Part shown: in pieces, positions 39,695-48,978 of the stretch | Layout: the number at the start of each line of letters is the position of its first letter | How positions within the stretch are numbered: the first letter of the stretch is position 1 | Origin: an uncultured Erysipelotrichaceae bacterium | Lineage (GTDB): Bacteria > Bacillota_I > Bacilli_A > RF39 > UBA660 | Assembly (NCBI GenBank): GCA_902779035.1 | Contig: CACZAH010000002.1 | Coordinates: 16,688 to 80,687 of the forward strand | Length of the DNA stretch: 64,000 nucleotides | Direction: 5' to 3' | Made by a program: the position numbers and the translations under genes | Notes under the pieces: generated by a model | Database searches by the model: none | The model's input: only the letters and a program-made list of their open reading frames with translations | What the model was told of the DNA's origin: nothing

Positions 39695-40015
39695 CTATTT
39701 TCTTGTATATATAGTATCTGAACCAAATGAATCTTTTACATTTAATTTATTACCATCTATACTATAAGTTGTATCAAATGAAGCAGTATTACCATCATAT
39801 AGAATTGATAACTTATCGCCATCTGTTTCATATGTACATTTCATAAGAGTTCCAGCAGCATCATAACTACAAGTTTTATCAGCATTAAATGTATAAACAT
39901 ATGAACCATGTGCCCATTTTCCTACTATTGTATTTTTCTTTTCTTTTCCACATCCTGTAAGTGCAACTACACAAATGAATAATAGTACAGAAAACATAAC
40001 CATTTTCTTTTTCAT
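39695..40015 (-). CDS. Small lipoprotein, hypothetical
   Basis: Signal peptide with the lipobox VALTGC. 106 aa. Confidence 0.5.
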   Translation of the reverse strand: MKKKMVMFSVLLFICVVALTGCGKEKKNTIVGKWAHGSYVYTFNADKTCSYDAAGTLMKCTYETDGDKLSILYDGNTASFDTTYSIDGNKLNVKDSFGSDTIYTRK

Positions 40016-40058: not shown

Positions 40059-40817
40059 TTATTTTAACAATTTTTTTAGAGCATTAGCATTTAATACTGT
40101 ATTAGAAATAAACTTTCCGTTGTAAAAGTTTGCCCAGTTATTAAATACACATGGAGCTTTTTTTGCTTTCTCTAATGTATCAATTTTAACAAAATTTAGC
40201 TTAATATTATTCTCTTTTGCATAATTAGATAATTCCTTAACTTCATATTCGACATAAGGACATTCATTAGAATAATAGATTGTAAAATCATCACTATCAA
40301 TTTCCATTTTTCTAGCACTATCACTAAATTTAGGTGTTTCTAGTGAATCAAATTGAAGTGCAAGCAATTCATAATCATTAATAGTATCTACTACTTTAAA
40401 ATCATAATGTTCAAAAAACTTTTTATCGCCAATAAAAGGTTTCTTTTTTTGAGATACAAGAGTACATATACCACTCATTTTTTTCTTCTTTGCATCAGAA
40501 ATAGCATATTCTAACAACTCTTTACCGATACCCTTTCCTTTAAAACTGCCAGAAACCCACAAGCAATAAATATACATATAGTTCTTACCATCAATTGGTA
40601 CCCAAGAAGTTTCAAGTGGCTCATATTCGATAAAAGTCTTCCCTCTAGCATTTAATTTTCTAAATACATGGCCATCTTTTAATTTACTTTTAATCCATTC
40701 TTTCTTTTTATCAACACCATTCTGATGTTTAGGATCTCCTATTGCACAACAAATATGTTCATTATCAATATTTTCTATACTTAAATTAATATACTCATTC
40801 ATACCATCAAACTCCAA
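40059..40817 (-). CDS. GNAT-family N-acetyltransferase (YoaP-like)
   Basis: The acetyl-CoA-binding pattern VSGSFKGKGIGKELL and the overall YoaP-like layout. Confidence 0.55.
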   Translation of the reverse strand: MEFDGMNEYINLSIENIDNEHICCAIGDPKHQNGVDKKKEWIKSKLKDGHVFRKLNARGKTFIEYEPLETSWVPIDGKNYMYIYCLWVSGSFKGKGIGKELLEYAISDAKKKKMSGICTLVSQKKKPFIGDKKFFEHYDFKVVDTINDYELLALQFDSLETPKFSDSARKMEIDSDDFTIYYSNECPYVEYEVKELSNYAKENNIKLNFVKIDTLEKAKKAPCVFNNWANFYNGKFISNTVLNANALKKLLK

Positions 40818-42383: not shown

Positions 42384-43223
42384 CTATTCAGTAATTACAC
42401 CATACTTCTTAAATTCACGTGTAAAGTAACTTGGTGGATTTTCACCTTCAACCGCACCTTCTAAATGATTATTTTTTGTAATAAGTGTAAGTGGAGTACC
42501 TAGATTATCAGCATCACTATAACCAATTGATTTTAAATTTTCAATTAATTCAGATTGTTCATCTTGACTCATTTCAGTTAAATTTAAATAATTTATAGTA
42601 ATATTGTTATTACCTGCAACTCTATTTAATACAGGTTTAACTGCTATACAGTGACTACATGTAGTTTGACCTATAACAATAACATTTAATGCATCTTCAT
42701 TAACTAATTCTTTATATCTATTAAAATCAATAAATGTTAAATTTTCTTCTGGTTTATATGTTGCAGCTTCATCTAATATTTTATTTTTCTTTAAGAATTC
42801 TACTGTATCTTTACCATCCATATATCCTACATTAACATCAACTACATCATCATCTTTAACTACTGCAATTGTTGGAGTAGAACCTTCAATATCTAGCACT
42901 TTAAGAATTTCTTTTTGATCATCTTTAGATAATTTAGAAGCATCTACATATAAATAATCAATCTTATAATCTTCTTTAATTTGTTTCATAATTGGTGTTT
43001 GAAGTGAACAATAACTACAAGTAGAACTTCCATAATAAATTACTGTCTCATCATCACTACCCATATATTTATAAAAACTATCAAGTATCTCACCTGAATC
43101 TTTTCCCTTTGTAGTAACCTTTTTATCTTTTGTAACAACCATACCTACTATAAGCGCAATCACTGCAATAACCGATACTGCAAGCATTGCAATTGTCTGT
43201 GTATTAAACATCTTCTTTTCCAT
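42384..43223 (-). CDS. Membrane-anchored protein with two tandem thioredoxin-fold domains (CSYC and CSHC active sites); thiol-disulfide oxidoreductase
   Basis: An N-terminal TM. Two CxxC motifs (SSTCSYCSL, QTTCSHCIA), each within a thioredoxin-like ~110-aa unit. Confidence 0.65.
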   Translation of the reverse strand: MEKKMFNTQTIAMLAVSVIAVIALIVGMVVTKDKKVTTKGKDSGEILDSFYKYMGSDDETVIYYGSSTCSYCSLQTPIMKQIKEDYKIDYLYVDASKLSKDDQKEILKVLDIEGSTPTIAVVKDDDVVDVNVGYMDGKDTVEFLKKNKILDEAATYKPEENLTFIDFNRYKELVNEDALNVIVIGQTTCSHCIAVKPVLNRVAGNNNITINYLNLTEMSQDEQSELIENLKSIGYSDADNLGTPLTLITKNNHLEGAVEGENPPSYFTREFKKYGVITE

Positions 43224-43342
43224 AATAATCCTTCTTTCTAAACAATTTAATTATAAACTATTTGAGTATTTTTTGCAAACATTTACTATGCTTTTTCAAT
43301 AATTATTCACATAAAATAAAACCGAATACATAAATATCCGAT

Positions 43343-43495
43343 TTATTTTTCTTTCTTTTCTTCTATTTTTGTAACTTTAGTTTTTTCTTCTTTAGTATTT
43401 TTCTTTTTATTTTTAGCATATAAAATACCGGCAGCAGTTGCACCCGCAGCTAAAGCACTTCCAACACCAATTGCAATTTTTGTACCTTTCTTCAT
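43343..43495 (-). CDS. Small (50-aa) glycine-zipper membrane protein with a Lys/Glu-rich tail. It falls below the ORF-track threshold
   Basis: The start ATG at 43495 has a GGAGGAT RBS. The translation is MKKGTKIAIGVGSALAAGATAAGILYAKNKKKNTKEEKTKVTKIEEKKEK. Confidence 0.4.
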   Translation of the reverse strand: MKKGTKIAIGVGSALAAGATAAGILYAKNKKKNTKEEKTKVTKIEEKKEK

Positions 43496-43571
43496 ACATC
43501 CTCCTATCTTAAGATACCTTTTGTATCTATCACAATTATAGCATCAGTTATATGTCTTATCAATATATATT

Positions 43572-44846
43572 TTAAATTTCACCTTTATATTTATATAATT
43601 TTTTTACAATTTGACAATACTTTACATCTGATAAATCCACATTCTTCTTTTCTGCAATATATTTTGTTAAATACATACTTTGTATAAGCATTTGATGATC
43701 ATCTAATATTTGATCTTCATATTTTGAATCTATAGTAATAATTCTACTATAATATTTTTTTAATTCTTCTAACATCATTCTATCAAATTCAGTATTTCTA
43801 TTATAATAAATCGCTATAGCATTATAATTAATACCAAGTGTGCTTCTACCATGACAATAAGAATATTTATCATGAACTATAGGTATTCCTATTCCTGATT
43901 CAACCATAGTTGATTCTAAATATTTTGATGCTGTACTTGTATCATAACCACTAAATATTTCATAGACATCACTTCCTAAATCAAAATCAAATGGTACTTC
44001 TTCTATACAATCTAACATTAGACTATTTTGTCTATTTAAATAATAACTCATTAATATACTCACAGGAATTAATGTTGCACCAAGTGATATAAAACTTTTT
44101 TCTTTATCAATAGTAGTGTTATATTTTAAGTAAGTTACATCATTATCATCAAATGAATTGTTAGAAAGTAAGTATTTTCTCAAACCTTTTAAAAATGATA
44201 ATTCTACTCCATAATTGTTTCCACTATAACTACATGCTACTACATTTTTAAATGCACCATTGTTTCGGTATAAAAAATCTCTTGGCTCACTATTTACTGA
44301 AACTATACCATTTTTAGTATTAATGACTTTGGCACCAAATTCACTAACTACACTTGATCCCCCAACACCACTAAATAATGTTGGTTCATTTAGTTTAGAC
44401 AATTCATTCCTAATAAAATCTAAATCAGTATTATTTAGTGAATCAACCACCCTTTCTTTTAGAAGTTCAAAATTAACTTGCATATTTTTTTGATACATTT
44501 TTTTAAACTGATTATAATCTATTACTGGTGTTTCAGTATTTTCGCTGCCAATTTTACAACAGTAACAGTCGCCATTATCAAAAATCTCATATAATTTTTC
44601 ATTATATTTTAACACATAACAAAATGTATTTTTAAATGTTATCCCATTTTTAAATCCATATTTATTAATTTCATCAAACAATGTTGATAAACAGTCAATG
44701 AAGACAATATCTTTTTCTTTCAAAACCCCTCTACTATTATGAGCAAAGTAGCAATCATCGAATTCACCATATTGATTCACAAAACTATCCAACCAATCTA
44801 TATACTCATCATTTAAAATTAATTTTACAAATTCTTTCTTTTCCAT
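43572..44846 (-). CDS. Hypothetical cytoplasmic Cys-rich 424-aa protein of unknown function, downstream of the WYL regulator
   Basis: An intact ORF with no confident family. Motifs FDDCYFAH, DCLSTLF, CYCCKIG, FSGVGGSSVVSEFGAKVI and HDKYSYCHGRSTLG. Confidence 0.4.
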   Translation of the reverse strand: MEKKEFVKLILNDEYIDWLDSFVNQYGEFDDCYFAHNSRGVLKEKDIVFIDCLSTLFDEINKYGFKNGITFKNTFCYVLKYNEKLYEIFDNGDCYCCKIGSENTETPVIDYNQFKKMYQKNMQVNFELLKERVVDSLNNTDLDFIRNELSKLNEPTLFSGVGGSSVVSEFGAKVINTKNGIVSVNSEPRDFLYRNNGAFKNVVACSYSGNNYGVELSFLKGLRKYLLSNNSFDDNDVTYLKYNTTIDKEKSFISLGATLIPVSILMSYYLNRQNSLMLDCIEEVPFDFDLGSDVYEIFSGYDTSTASKYLESTMVESGIGIPIVHDKYSYCHGRSTLGINYNAIAIYYNRNTEFDRMMLEELKKYYSRIITIDSKYEDQILDDHQMLIQSMYLTKYIAEKKNVDLSDVKYCQIVKKLYKYKGEI

Positions 44847-44897
44847 AAAAAATCTCCTTTCAAGTTAACTATAACTCAAAAGGAGGTAATATTTCGT

Positions 44898-45500
44898 CTA
44901 CTCATATTTTTCATTTAATAATTCGTATTTTATTATTCTTTTTAACTCAAAATGCCTAATATCTTGTTTCTTTTCACAAAAGGCTGCACAGTACCAACCA
45001 TCTTGAAATAAAAACATTTCTGCTGGATCTATTACTCTTTCGTTTTCACCTTTACCATAAGAGTAATATAATATTTTAACTTTCCTCTTTTCTTTTATTG
45101 CTCTTGTTAATAAATTATACTTCTTTCCATTTTCATCTTTTAAATTTAATTCTTTTTCTTCTTGCTTACTTCCTATGTATACGCCTTTAATTTTATCTTG
45201 AAGTAATATAAGTTCATCTTTTATGTCCTTATCTTTTTCACTTGCTATGTACTTATCTAATAATTTAGCATCTTTCATTTTAAATTTTCTAACAGGCATG
45301 CGAACTGATTGATTTAATACATATCCTCCATATGGTCCCATTATTGTATCAATATATATTCCTGCTTTTTCCAAATCTTCTTTATATACTCTAATCATTC
45401 TATAAGTTACTTCAAGTTTGTTTGATAATTCACTTATGCTATATTTTCTTCCAGACTGTAATAGTTGCAACATTGTTAATACATTGGATATTTTAGACAT
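44898..45500 (-). CDS. HTH + WYL-domain transcriptional regulator (YafY/CapW-like, short form)
   Basis: The N-terminal HTH_11-like segment MLQLLQSGRKYSISELSNKLEVTYRMIRVYKEDLEKAG. The C-terminal WYL-like region KVKILYYSYGKGENERVIDPAEMFLFQDGWYCAAFC...IRHFELKRI. Start at an ATG with an AGGTGG RBS. Confidence 0.55.
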   Translation of the reverse strand: MSKISNVLTMLQLLQSGRKYSISELSNKLEVTYRMIRVYKEDLEKAGIYIDTIMGPYGGYVLNQSVRMPVRKFKMKDAKLLDKYIASEKDKDIKDELILLQDKIKGVYIGSKQEEKELNLKDENGKKYNLLTRAIKEKRKVKILYYSYGKGENERVIDPAEMFLFQDGWYCAAFCEKKQDIRHFELKRIIKYELLNEKYE

Positions 45501-45582
45501 AAAACCACCTATATAAATTATATCATATCTTTTATCTTTCAAAAATATCCATGAAAAGGTATCTAAAGTGCGTTATAACATA

Positions 45583-45650
45583 TAAACTCGCAATTTTTTA
45601 GCAAAGAAAAAACTCACGTTTTCCCTTATTTTTTCGGGGTTTGCGAGTTT
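45583..45650 (-). terminator. secA intrinsic terminator: AAACUCGC...GUGAGUUU stem (one G.U) enclosing an inner CCC/GGG hairpin, followed by UUUUUUCUUU
   Basis: Folded by eye on the minus-strand transcript immediately after the secA stop. Confidence 0.45.
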
Positions 45651-48105
45651 ATTTACCACAACACTGCTTATATTTCTTTCCCGATCCACATGGACAAGGC
45701 TCATTTCTACCTACTTTTTTAACTCTTTTAGGTGCTTTTTTCTTAGTTTCTTTACCATCATTAGCAACACCTTTCTCTACTTCTTTTCTCTCTGTATTCT
45801 GTCTTATTTCAGCCTTTAGAAGATATGTAGTAGTCTGGGCATCAATCTTCATAAGTAGTTTTTCAAATAGTTCATATCCTTCATTTTTATATTCACGAAG
45901 TGGATCATTTTGTGCATAACCCCTTAAATGAATTCCTTCTCTTAAATGTGACATTGTATTAATATGTTCCATCCAGTGTGTATCTATTACTCTTAAAGTA
46001 ATTGCTTTTTCAAATTCATCTTTTATCTCATCAGGTACTTTAGCTATCTTTTCTTCATATTCTAATTTCATTTTATTAAATATGTAATCAGCCATAGTAT
46101 CTTCATCCATATTAGATATCTCATCAATAGTAATAGAATCCTTTAATAAGTCATTAATTCCTTCTAGCATCTCTGATAAATCATTTCTATTAGGACTATC
46201 TGATGATAAATGAGATTCTATTGAATCATATACAAAATTCTTCATGGATTCTAATACATCTTCATGGATAGATTCTTTTTCTAGAATATCATTTCTCTTT
46301 TTATAAATAATAGTTCTTTGTTCATTTAATACATTATCATATTCAAGTAATGTTTTTCTTATGTCAAAGTTATTACCCTCAACTCTTTTTTGGGCAGATT
46401 CAAGAGAACCTGATAACATCTTATTTCTAATAGACATATCATCATTAAAACCAACTCTTTGAAGTAGTAATTTGGCTCTATCAGTACCAAATCTAACCAT
46501 TAAATCATCTTCAAATGATACACAGAATTGACTAAAACCTGGATCTCCTTGACGACCTGAACGTCCACGTAACTGATTATCAATACGACGTGATTCATGA
46601 CGTTCTGTACCAATTACACATAATCCGCCTAACTCTTTTACTTCATCAGTAAGTTTAATATCTGTTCCACGTCCAGCCATATTTGTTGCGATAGTTACCG
46701 CACCTTTTTCACCCGCTTTAGCAATTATTTCAGCTTCACGAGCATTATTTTTGGCATTTAATACCTCATGAGGTATATGTTCTTTTTTTAATCTCTCACT
46801 TAATAATTCACTAGTTTCAACCGCAACAGTACCAACTAAAACTGGTTGCCCTATAGCATATCTTTCTTTTATTTCATTAATTATTGCTTTATATTTACCT
46901 TCTTTAGTAGCAAATAATAAATCACCATAATCTTTTCTAGCTATAGGTTTATTTGTAGGAATAGTAATAACATACATATTATATATTTCTCTAAATTCCT
47001 CTTCTTCTGTTTTAGCAGTACCAGTCATACCTGATAACTTTTTATACATTCTAAATAAATTCTGGAATGTTATGGTTGCAAGGGTTTTAGTTTCTTCATT
47101 AATTGTAACTCCTTCTTTAGCCTCTATTGCTTGATGAAGGCCATCAGAATAATTACGCCCCTTCATAAGACGTCCTGTAAATGGATCTACTATAACTATT
47201 GAATCTTCACTAACAACATAATCTACATCTCTTTTCATACCATAGTTAGCCTTTAAAGCCTGATTAATAAAGTGAACTAAAGTTGTATGATTAATGTCAT
47301 ATAAGTTATCTAATTTAAAAGATTTTTCTGCTTTTTCAATACCTTCCTTATCCAATGCAACTGATTTAGTTTTCTCATCATAGATAAATCCAGCATTTTC
47401 TTTTAATTTTTTTACAAATCTATCTGTTTCTATATATAGATTAGCAGATTTCATTGTTCCACCAGAAATAATAAGTGGAGTTCTAGCCTCATCTATCAAT
47501 ACTGAGTCCACTTCATCTATAATTGCAAAGTTAAGTGGTCTTTGAACTCTATCTTGTGCTTTAATAACCATATTATCTCTTAAGTAGTCAAATCCAATTT
47601 CATTATTTGTTGAGTATAGAATGTCACAATTATATGCTTCCTTCTTTTCAGCAGGTGACATATCACGATAATTAATACCTACAGTAAGTCCTAAATATCT
47701 ATATATTTCTCCCATCCATTCAGCATCACGTCCAGCTAAGTATTCATTTACTGTAATAATATGTACTCCATCACCTGATAATGCATTTAAATAAGCAGGT
47801 AGGGTAGATGTTAATGTTTTACCTTCTCCTGTTTTCATCTCAGCAATATTTCCATAATGAATTGCAAGTCCACCTACTAACTGTACAAAGAATGGTTTTT
47901 CACCCAATACTCTGTATGCAGCCTCTCTAACAGTTGCAAATGCTTCTACTTTAATGTCTTCTAATGTTTCTCCATTTGCTAGTCTTTCTCTAAATTCAAC
48001 TGTTTTATGCTTTAAATCATCTTCTGATAAAGCAGAATATTCTTCATCTAATGCATCTATTTCTTTAGCAATTTTCTTAAATTTCAAATATTTTCCAAAA
48101 ATCAT
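45649..48105 (-). CDS. secA: Preprotein translocase ATPase SecA
   Basis: 818 aa. The DEAD-like motor, the helical scaffold and the C-terminal zinc-binding [15 protein letters not shown]. Confidence 0.95.
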
Positions 48106-48136
48106 AGTTTAACCGTAAAAAAAGACTCAAAAGAGT

Positions 48137-48664
48137 CTATTTTGTTACGATTAAACCGTAATTACCATCTTTTCTTTTATATACAACATTTGTTTCGCTA
48201 GTACTAGCATCCTTATATACAAAGAAATCATGATCTATTAATTCCATTTGAAGTATTGCTTCTTCTTCACTCATTGGTTTCATTTCTATTTCTTTTCTCT
48301 TTACAACCTCAATTGATGATTCTTTTTCTTCTGTCTCAAATTCTTTAAAATCTCTAATTGTTTCTTTAGATGATTTTTTATGTATTTTAGTCTTATTCTT
48401 TCTAATTTGTCTTTCAATTTTATCAGTAACAAAATCAATAGATGCGTATAAATCTTTATTAGATTCTTCTCCCCTTAATATAAGGCCATGCGTATTAATT
48501 GTAACCTCTACAACTTGGTCTTTACCACTTAATCTCATTAAAACATTTGCAGAAATATTATTAGGATTTTCAAAGTATTTATCTAATCTCCCTATTTTCT
48601 CTTCTACATATGCTTTAATCGCATCTGTAACTTCTAACTTTTTCCCACGAATCGTAAATTTCAT
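48137..48664 (-). CDS. hpf: Ribosome hibernation promoting factor (long HPF)
   Basis: MKFTIRGKKLEVTDAIKAYVEEKIGRLDKYF plus the C-terminal dimerisation domain. The start has a GAGAGGA RBS. Confidence 0.85.
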   Translation of the reverse strand: MKFTIRGKKLEVTDAIKAYVEEKIGRLDKYFENPNNISANVLMRLSGKDQVVEVTINTHGLILRGEESNKDLYASIDFVTDKIERQIRKNKTKIHKKSSKETIRDFKEFETEEKESSIEVVKRKEIEMKPMSEEEAILQMELIDHDFFVYKDASTSETNVVYKRKDGNYGLIVTK

Positions 48665-48759
48665 AATATCATCCTCTCTAAGGTAATTATAGCATTTACA
48701 ATTACTAATTTCAATATAGTTATAACAAAAAAATGACAATCGTCATTTTTAACATCTAA

Positions 48760-48978
48760 CTACACAAGTGCATCTTTTAATTCAATAACGTTCTTAGCTT
48801 GTAACCCTTTGTCAGTTCTTACTAAGTCAAACTTAACATATTGGCCTTCAACAAGTGTTTTGTAGCCTTCAGATAAAATTGCGGAATAATGAACAAATAT
48901 ATCTTCTTGATCATTATATTCAATAAATCCAAAGCCTTTTTCGTTATTGAACCATTTAACTTTTCCAGTAATCATCAT
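48760..48978 (-). CDS. Cold-shock protein (CspA family)
   Basis: The RNP1/RNP2 motifs [14 protein letters not shown] and VHYSAI. ~70 aa. Confidence 0.9.

Follow-up and report, generated by a model that had tools for sequence, protein, structure and literature searches.

We analysed a 64,000-nt stretch of DNA from an uncultured Erysipelotrichaceae bacterium (GenBank assembly GCA_902779035.1, contig CACZAH010000002.1, positions 16,688 to 80,687; hereafter the window), in which the gene of a transcription factor with a helix-turn-helix (HTH) and a WYL domain lies directly upstream of a 424-amino-acid (aa) open reading frame (ORF). We refer to this ORF and its protein as X. Both genes are on the minus strand, where the order between 42.3 and 48.1 kb is secA, WYL, X, a 50-aa ORF, a 279-aa membrane protein, a bacterial PH-domain (bPH) protein, and rplM-rpsI (Table 1). 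A previous annotation of this DNA, made without database searches (the sequence-only reading), had described a WYL HTH regulator directly 5' of the 424-aa protein, followed by a 50-aa peptide and a membrane protein with two thioredoxin domains, the block as a whole lying between secA and rplM-rpsI. The ORFs, their strand and the Pfam matches of the regulator (HTH_11 and WYL) agree with that description, and Pfam also recovered thioredoxin folds in the 279-aa protein. Base composition is uniform over the window and shows no anomaly.

Table 1 Features of the WYL-X locus and its surroundings, with positions in the window.
Feature	Position	Strand	Remarks
secA	45649-48105	minus	5' of the WYL gene
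Promoter-like region of the WYL gene	45505-45527	minus	extended -10 TATGATATAAT at 45517-45527; ribosome-binding site AGGTGG at 45505-45510; very short leader
HTH_11-WYL transcription factor gene	44898-45500	minus	200 aa from ATG 45500; longest ORF 44898-45542 from TTG
Conserved box GTAGACGAAATA	44890-44901	minus	overlaps WYL stop TAG 44898-44900; unique in the window
RNA hairpin, 14 bp	44854-44885	minus	5' arm 44872-44885, loop 44868-44871, 3' arm 44854-44867
-10-like hexamer TATAGT	44868-44873	minus	hairpin apex, 16 nt after the box; putative -10 of an X promoter
X ribosome-binding site AAAGGAG	44854-44860	minus	inside the 3' arm of the hairpin
T-run	44847-44852	minus	after the hairpin, right before X ATG 44844-44846; conserved across lineages
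X, 424-aa ORF	43572-44846	minus	starts 51 nt 3' of the WYL stop
X N-terminal accessory domain, aa 1-118	44493-44846	minus	alpha/beta; some lineages only; AlphaFold2 pLDDT 89
X conserved core, aa 119-424 and stop	43572-44492	minus	tandem double-SIS by AlphaFold2 and Foldseek
X invariant residues	G162-G163-S164 44355-44363; E316 43899-43901; H332-G333 43848-43853	minus	
50-aa peptide ORF	43343-43495	minus	no Pfam match
279-aa membrane protein	42384-43223	minus	N-terminal hydrophobic segment; CxxC motifs CSYC and CSHC in two thioredoxin-fold regions
bPH protein, then rplM-rpsI		minus	gene order 3' of the 279-aa protein

The pairing of the two genes recurs throughout the X family. In a set holding one genome per species (96 stretches with an X relative, 80 kept), which consists of uncultured gut 'Bacilli', 'Tenericutes' and 'Erysipelotrichaceae' metagenome-assembled genomes (e.g., CAG:594, CAG:877, CAG:460), tblastn of the window genes against the loci placed the WYL gene directly 5' of X in about 73 of 80 genomes, so that the question of the sequence-only reading, whether a WYL regulator always adjoins the homologues, can be answered with 'nearly'. 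The gap between the WYL stop codon and X is constant across homologues (51-55 nt), and fusions with an X-like core behind a PfkB or a Ham1 domain (28-40% identity; 28% for the PfkB-fused core) still have an HTH_11-WYL gene about 55-60 nt upstream. We also searched metagenome contigs with a 19-nt pattern of the box and the anti-Shine-Dalgarno stretch of the spacer described below, which matched 102 stretches and returned 80 loci. Among these 80, about 66 had WYL upstream and 61 had X downstream, with both in about 60; most of the others were truncated contigs, or had no start codon or ORF after the match. X homologues numbered 1,727 in a collection clustered at 90%, every one of them without a name or a Pfam domain, and an exhaustive search of 1.84 billion representatives resolved the family into 284 clusters at 50% identity. 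With the regulator 51-55 nt upstream in nearly all homologues, the proposal of a regulated and undescribed module of the WYL gene and the 424-aa protein holds.

The module is, nevertheless, smaller than first proposed. secA, the thioredoxin protein, the peptide, bPH and rplM/rpsI accompany X in its nearest relatives only (tblastn), and the 50-aa peptide was present in 3 of 123 unique regions downstream of X; the thioredoxin protein and the peptide, which had been counted as members, thus fall outside the module. No third conserved gene was found among 236 flanking ORFs of 55 dereplicated loci. These ORFs formed 183 families, the commonest being prfB, an FtsE-like ABC ATPase, RbgA, secA and a CDF transporter, and a conserved third member was rejected given that 150 of the families were singletons. 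The unit is two genes only, WYL and X, plus the 51-nt spacer between them.

Translation of the regulator probably begins at ATG 45500; an AGGTGG ribosome-binding site and an extended -10 precede this codon. Pfam detected HTH_11 at residues 22-74 (29.1 bits; cutoff 25), an N-terminal winged HTH (wHTH), and a WYL domain (65.8 bits; cutoff 21.8), and the protein scored 100 bits against the generic WYL model of PADLOC. Matches to PafBC, PafC and BrxR-type proteins among PDB sequences span the WYL domain only (E = 1.7e-8 for the PafBC WYL domain). The protein has no C-terminal WCX domain: it ends 8 residues past the WYL match, at a length of 200 aa from the ATG or 214 from the TTG, and its homologues are 194-206 aa long compared with about 290-330 aa for WCX-bearing proteins. 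To the best of our knowledge, WCX is present in all characterised WYL activators and repressors. WYL domains are described in the literature as binding single-stranded DNA (ssDNA) or ligands resembling single-stranded RNA (ssRNA), the known ligands now including ssDNA and c-di-GMP, and the characterised factors answer to ssDNA in defence and damage pathways.

Upstream of the regulator gene, a layout of TGnTATAAT, about 7 nt, GGTGG and ATG is common to many lineages, and its match to the promoter consensus suggests that 45505-45527 serves as the WYL gene's own promoter. A universal operator 5' of the WYL gene was not found across lineages, the only motif being the lineage-specific TTAGATACC. 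In the window's lineage alone, a TTTAGATACC motif (45558-45567, minus strand) sits about 30-50 nt 5' of the WYL -10, either once or as two direct copies, at times with an inverted GGTAT; it was also seen upstream of WYL in five other loci (L018, L117, L169, L026, L099).

X gave no family match against Pfam, PHROG, PADLOC or PDB sequences, and NCBIfam returned only an archaeal PGI/PMI model below threshold (17.7 bits; cutoff 213.9). Most homologues, with 303-307 aa, start at a position equivalent to about residue 119 in the window protein, which places the conserved core at residues 119-424. We modelled X with AlphaFold2 on a 51-sequence alignment (pLDDT 89, pTM 0.87), and Foldseek matched the core to tandem double-SIS enzymes in the PDB with a probability of 1.00 (E 2.8e-11 to 1e-9, identity 11-17%, target-normalised TM 0.6-0.7). 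The matches included Lmo0035 (2aml), Shewanella NagB-II (8fdb, 8eym), the isomerase domains of GFAT/GlmS, GlcN6P deaminases (7kqa, 2cb0) and B. subtilis FrlB (3eua). Sequence also links some members of the family to SIS proteins: 11 of 57 diverse ones reach Pfam SIS (PF01380), which the window protein does not, and a PfkB fusion (P0340) matches the glmS model at E = 2.5e-8; X thus belongs to the double-SIS superfamily and to no curated family within it. The earlier statement that no family could be assigned is accordingly right for sequence databases, but the fold is of the double-SIS phosphosugar isomerase, deaminase or deglycase type.

The same 57 members, down to 24% identity, have only G162-G163-S164, E316 and H332-G333 as invariant residues, with K327, S312, E249 and S251 near-invariant. 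GVGGS and SYSGNN of X correspond to the two SIS phosphate-binding motifs, the Gly-rich one being the SIS phosphate loop. H332, which stands 16 residues after E316, is part of an 'HGR' loop, and the family also has a conserved C-terminal tail. A manual gapless alignment showed a like pattern in what we take to be the E488/H504 segment of GlmS. In FraB, E214 is the general base and H230, 16 residues away in an HGP loop, the general acid, again with a C-tail (PMC12359202). We infer that X is most likely an isomerase, deaminase or deglycase, with a phosphorylated amino- or keto-sugar as the predicted substrate.

All of the motifs singled out by the sequence-only reading are present in X, namely FDDCYFAH (29-36), DCLSTLF (51-57), CYCCKIG (94-100), a Gly-rich FSGVGGSSVVSEFGAKVI (158-175) and a further stretch, HDKYSYCHGRSTLG (325-338). 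The first three lie within the optional domain of aa 1-118, which is absent from most members. The description of X as Cys-rich is a weak one: X has 10 Cys in 424 residues, six of them N-terminal. Among distant homologues bearing the same domain these Cys vary and no conserved Cys/His metal site was seen, which leaves 'Cys-rich' without functional support. Structure prediction, which had been proposed as a check, was informative for the core. For aa 1-118 it gave a confident model (pLDDT 89) but no significant fold match in the PDB (best E = 0.11), and no other protein context was found for this domain. In longer relatives, the N-terminal head is either a PfkB kinase (about 640-660 aa in all, with a core that scores as Pfam SIS) or a Ham1/RdgB ITPase (493-543 aa). 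The fused PfkB halves retain the TGAGDAF catalytic motif; NCBIfam gave no classification of their substrate. One such fusion (P0345) provided a weak phmmer bridge in the PDB, to 2aml only.

The 51-nt WYL-X spacer is better conserved than either protein. Its first feature is the box (as a double-stranded DNA stretch, GTAGACGAAATATTACCTC), which is near-invariant in loci found through protein similarity. Relative to the WYL stop codon, the box can be placed across it or immediately after it, depending on the lineage, and in two loci (L041 and L046) it comes 26 nt further downstream. Its position is independent of the WYL stop, and its conservation is therefore not a coding constraint. The 3' part of the box opens a near-palindrome, whose halves are GACGAAAT and ATTTCCTC in the family consensus and GACGAAAT and ATTACCTC in the window copy. 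Among 91 elements selected by a regular expression, GAAATATTTC is a perfect palindrome in 34, and the 16-mer made of the two consensus halves matches at 7 of 8 pairs.

Downstream of the box, the spacer forms a hairpin of 12-16 bp in every lineage (-13 to -22 kcal/mol). The window copy has -17.6 kcal/mol (z = -6.5 relative to shuffles) and scored as terminator-like. Across 43 variants, the sense strand was in each case more stable than the antisense strand (-17.2 vs -11.8 kcal/mol), 13% of pairs were G-U, and the X ribosome-binding site was sequestered in 39. A covariance-model alignment had 95.7% of cells paired and compensatory double changes at 11 of 14 pairs, values that 0 of 500 shuffles reached, and shifting the hairpin register collapsed the pairing. 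Strand bias, G-U pairs, covariation and shuffles together identify the spacer hairpin as a genuine RNA structure. Rfam had no relevant match at E <= 10 in 43200-45800, and the covariance model found one copy per locus, always ending at the ATG of X.

Exceptional loci show to which gene the element belongs. In L057 (3405-7936) and L075 (1-2311), an ABC transporter (1068 aa, fused ATPase and permease) and two membrane-protein genes have been inserted 5' of X. The WYL gene of L057 is 4.7 kb upstream of X and ends with an unrelated terminator and no box, whereas box and hairpin still stand directly 5' of X; the contig of L075 ends within the insertion, and box and hairpin are intact 5' of X. Conversely, four loci (L005, L040, L050, L051) have no adjacent WYL gene, no box and no hairpin. 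As the element stays with X in the former and is missing along with the adjacent regulator in the latter, it is the control region of X, co-occurring with the regulator. In L005, the TTTAGATACC motif sits directly 5' of X, and it looks as if a deletion had put X under the former WYL promoter. A further locus (L021, 7779-7943) has a WYL remnant of about 55 codons right after secA, with box, hairpin and X intact, which may represent recent pseudogenisation of the regulator.

The loop of the hairpin has a conserved feature of its own. T29 and A30 of the element are at least 90% conserved, and TAnnn[T/A] occupies positions 29-34 in 99% of the 91 unique elements (TAnnnT in 75%), with far lower values at other offsets. 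The distance from box to hexamer remains exactly 16 nt even between lineages whose stem registers differ by 2 nt. A promoter scan that requires a -35 reported no promoter at the spacer, and the box occupies the -35 position; judged from its sequence, the combination of box and hexamer has the geometry of an activator-dependent promoter without a -35. DriD-dependent promoters likewise have a clear activator site and a -10 with no recognisable -35, the distance from site to -10 being identical in all targets (PMC13004042). A standard sigma-70 promoter with TAGACG as the -35 was rejected, because the distance from -35 to -10 would be 21 nt. The layout of -10, about 7 nt, ribosome-binding site and ATG is shared with the promoter of the WYL gene, which we count in favour of an embedded X promoter.

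We consider activation by the WYL protein of a promoter embedded in the hairpin to be the most likely mechanism, and would give it about an even chance of being correct. Under this mechanism, the hairpin and T-run would terminate transcription coming from the WYL gene, and in read-through RNA the hairpin would pair with the X ribosome-binding site and mask it from translation, so that X would be silent by default. The embedded promoter would comprise the -10-like hexamer at the apex and, in place of a -35, the partly palindromic box, to which the WYL protein would bind as a dimer. Upon binding of a ligand by its WYL domain, the protein would switch the promoter on, in the way that DriD and PafBC act where a -35 is missing; we infer activation rather than repression. 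Transcription would start about 7 nt past the hexamer, in the 3' arm, and yield a short mRNA with a free ribosome-binding site. The X enzyme would most likely work on a phosphorylated amino- or keto-sugar in the manner of GlmS, NagB-II and FrlB/FraB, with E316 serving as base and H332 as acid.

Several points weigh against this mechanism and need to be considered. A quarter (25%) of the loop hexamers have A in place of the canonical final T, an upstream TG is missing from most of them, and the loop could instead be conserved for recognition by a protein or RNA. Pairing with the ribosome-binding site is a further constraint on the right half of the palindrome, and the regular expression by which the 91 elements behind the hexamer and palindrome counts were selected makes some 'invariant' columns circular. 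The regulator does not have the WCX domain of characterised WYL factors, and its oligomeric state and mode of action may therefore differ from theirs. On the side of the enzyme, a profile of the X family found no SIS protein among PDB sequences, and an hhalign comparison with the isomerase domain of E. coli GlmS, for which we used what is presumably its sequence, aligned the wrong SIS repeat at a probability of 0.6% and was discarded. For these two reasons the catalytic pair E316/H332 was mapped by a manual gapless alignment of motifs, and its assignment is accordingly a tentative one. A lone enzyme with neither transporter nor kinase in most lineages would also be unusual for a catabolic role, and a simple sugar pathway does not account for the Ham1 fusion.

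Control could instead be exerted at the RNA level, with the WYL protein binding the box as single-stranded RNA in the WYL-X co-transcript, beside the 5' arm. The hairpin would thereby be prevented or stabilised, and termination and ribosome access switched, which would amount to a protein-dependent riboregulator. The hairpin on the mRNA strand, with its G-U pairs and covariation, would be expected in that case, as would a box immediately 5' of the stem that is conserved whatever the coding frame; the fact that regulator and element occur or are missing together and the affinity of WYL domains for ssDNA or ssRNA-like ligands are likewise in line with it. We nonetheless think it unlikely, considering that the near-palindromic box fits double-stranded DNA bound by a dimer, that the regulator has a canonical wHTH for DNA binding, and that such a model gives no role to the loop hexamer, whose spacing from the box is constant. 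In addition, we know of no WYL transcription factor that acts on RNA.

The sequence-only reading had linked the WYL regulator to a defence island, a link that is probably wrong. In a PADLOC scan, X, the peptide, the thioredoxin protein and the bPH protein had no match and the regulator matched generic WYL models only; the box/anti-Shine-Dalgarno pattern had 0 matches in viral contigs; and no recurrent defence or mobile neighbours were found in 55 locus clusters, RhuM occurring in 3 loci only. These results, together with the ordinary base composition and a neighbourhood in which 150 of 183 families are singletons and the recurrent ones mostly housekeeping, also make it improbable that the pair is a defence or damage module, in which the WYL protein would sense ssDNA from phage or damage, X would deplete or repair an essential sugar-phosphate or nucleotide-derived metabolite, and the N-terminal fusions would supply alternative effector or clean-up activities. 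Such a module would be consistent with the ssDNA response of characterised WYL factors (CapW, BrxR, DriD, PafBC), with an X that would be tightly off by default, with the variety of N-terminal fusion partners (PfkB, Ham1, an unknown domain), with occasional NUDIX, ADP-ribosylglycohydrolase and RhuM neighbours, and with WYL and X alleles that in some cases appear shuffled. SIS enzymes are, to our knowledge, not known as defence effectors.

It also seems quite unlikely that the WYL protein is a dual nucleic-acid sensor on its own transcript, which would bind the box as ssRNA and open the hairpin, and which would control a new class of SIS enzymes, with kinase or ITPase heads exchanged among them, whose role would be to clear or deplete a damaged or signalling sugar-phosphate or nucleotide-derived metabolite during nucleic-acid stress. 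If the box were indeed read as ssRNA, this would be the first WYL-dependent riboregulator.

In a simple operon with translational coupling, X would be translated only after ribosomes ending the WYL ORF had melted the hairpin, to give a fixed-stoichiometry WYL-X complex. The SIS protein would be the sensor subunit of this complex, as if an RpiR-type regulator had been split (in RpiR/MurR regulators, HTH and SIS domains are parts of one protein). This agrees with a WYL stop 12-14 nt before the stem in most loci and with the sequestered ribosome-binding site of 39 of the 43 variants, but is very unlikely and as a main mechanism is weakened by four loci, as the stop lies 26 nt further upstream in L041 and L046 and the element follows an unrelated membrane-protein gene in L057 and L075 (with the WYL gene of L057 4.7 kb off), while a ribosome at the stop reaches only the base of the 14-bp stem and the invariant Glu/His pair suggests catalysis rather than ligand sensing alone.

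Among neighbours of the pair, NUDIX hydrolases (two families), ADP-ribosylglycohydrolase and RhuM (PADLOC candidate PDC-S05) were each seen at 3 loci (coordinates: L030 8936-9550, L041 9760-10164, L071 5362-6009, L067 9029-10024). Together with the Ham1 and PfkB fusions they hint at a 'house-cleaning' theme centred on nucleotides or ribose phosphates, albeit from small counts in related lineages. In eight loci (L074, L174, L081, L096, L098, L058, L176, L039), WYL is 82-92% identical to the window copy and the X core 52-65%, the overall correlation being r = 0.83. This suggests that X or WYL alleles are swapped now and then, possibly by recombination within the conserved spacer.

The surroundings of the pair in the window include further observations. 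A csp-hpf-secA cluster lies 5' of the WYL-X pair in several lineages (45649-48978 in the window), and in L001 the pair stands between secA and prfB (L001 and L002 have the order secA ... WYL-X-prfB). In Firmicutes, secA and prfB are usually neighbours. The window has the peptide, the thioredoxin protein, bPH and rplM where L001 has prfB, and the odd adjacency of secA and rplM, to which the sequence-only reading had pointed, reflects a rearrangement around the WYL-X site. The 50-aa ORF has its own strong promoter-like site (43535-43563, minus strand; TTGATA, 17 nt, TATAAT with an upstream TG; 11 of 12 matches) and is kept in the closest lineage only (90% in L014, about 54% in L013 and L165), with a conserved Gly/Ala-rich N-terminal membrane segment and a divergent Lys-rich tail. 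It is probably a real small membrane protein, but not related to the WYL-X unit. The thioredoxin protein (42384-43223) adjoins X only in L013 and L014, and its top NCBIfam match is the PedC/BrcD bacteriocin-maturation disulfide isomerase family (58 bits; cutoff 120). Two genes lie 3' of rpsI on the minus strand, one for a GNAT acetyltransferase fused to a YoaP-like C-terminal domain (40059-40817), a gene that precedes WYL in L013 and L014 and follows X in L027, and the other for a DUF5640 lipocalin-like lipoprotein (39695-40015).

Taken singly, WYL transcription factors, SIS enzymes and terminator hairpins are all familiar components. In the literature that was searched, no paper linked WYL regulators with SIS proteins, and the obligate WYL-X pairing, the minimal regulator architecture and the composite cis-element appear to be undescribed. 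To the best of our knowledge, nearly all known WYL regulators come from the contexts of DNA damage and anti-phage defence. A WYL factor without WCX that is locked to a sugar-phosphate-type enzyme in about a hundred uncultured gut species would widen the range of WYL sensing and control. The X family, with its 284 clusters, is a deeply branching and unannotated group among the GlmS/FraB-type SIS enzymes of bacteria in the gut, a habitat where the metabolism of amino sugars and Amadori compounds is important. If a promoter does lie within a terminator that masks the ribosome-binding site, the gene would be completely insulated from its upstream neighbour. Box and hexamer yield directly testable predictions of binding and of the start site.

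When compared with known systems, the pair most resembles, on the regulatory side, DriD of Caulobacter and PafBC of mycobacteria, which also combine an N-terminal wHTH with a WYL domain. Further likenesses are a regulator encoded beside its target gene and, for the candidate X promoter, a conserved site at a constant distance from the -10 with no recognisable -35. The regulator described here differs from them in its length of 200 aa without WCX, in a predicted target that is a sugar-phosphate-type enzyme and not a DNA-damage gene, and in a putative target promoter embedded in a hairpin that would act as terminator and mask of the ribosome-binding site. CapW and BrxR are likewise HTH-WYL regulators encoded immediately 5' of the genes that they control, but they carry WCX, bind palindromes in their own promoters and adjoin CBASS, BREX or similar systems, whereas in the present case defence genes are absent and the conserved site is placed between regulator and target.

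On the enzymatic side, X shares with GlmS, NagB-II, AgaS, FrlB and FraB the tandem SIS fold (Foldseek E about 1e-11), the Gly/Ser phosphate loop and SxSG motif and, tentatively and by manual matching of residues, the Glu and His 16 residues apart, the His in an HG(P/R) loop, and the conserved C-terminal tail. The PfkB-fused relatives of X recall the kinase-deglycase pairs FrlD/FrlB and FraD/FraB. X differs from these double-SIS enzymes in its low identity (11-17%) and absence from Pfam and NCBIfam families, in an Asn at the place of T352 in the phosphate motif of GlmS, and in being usually a lone gene with no transporter, kinase or deacetylase, or in some cases fused to Ham1 or to the 118-aa domain. 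Finally, the spacer element has the stable stem-loop and T-run of intrinsic terminators and, in its 3' arm, the ribosome-binding site of masking hairpins, but unlike these it has an invariant flanking box and a -10-like loop, has no Rfam model and is found with one gene family only.

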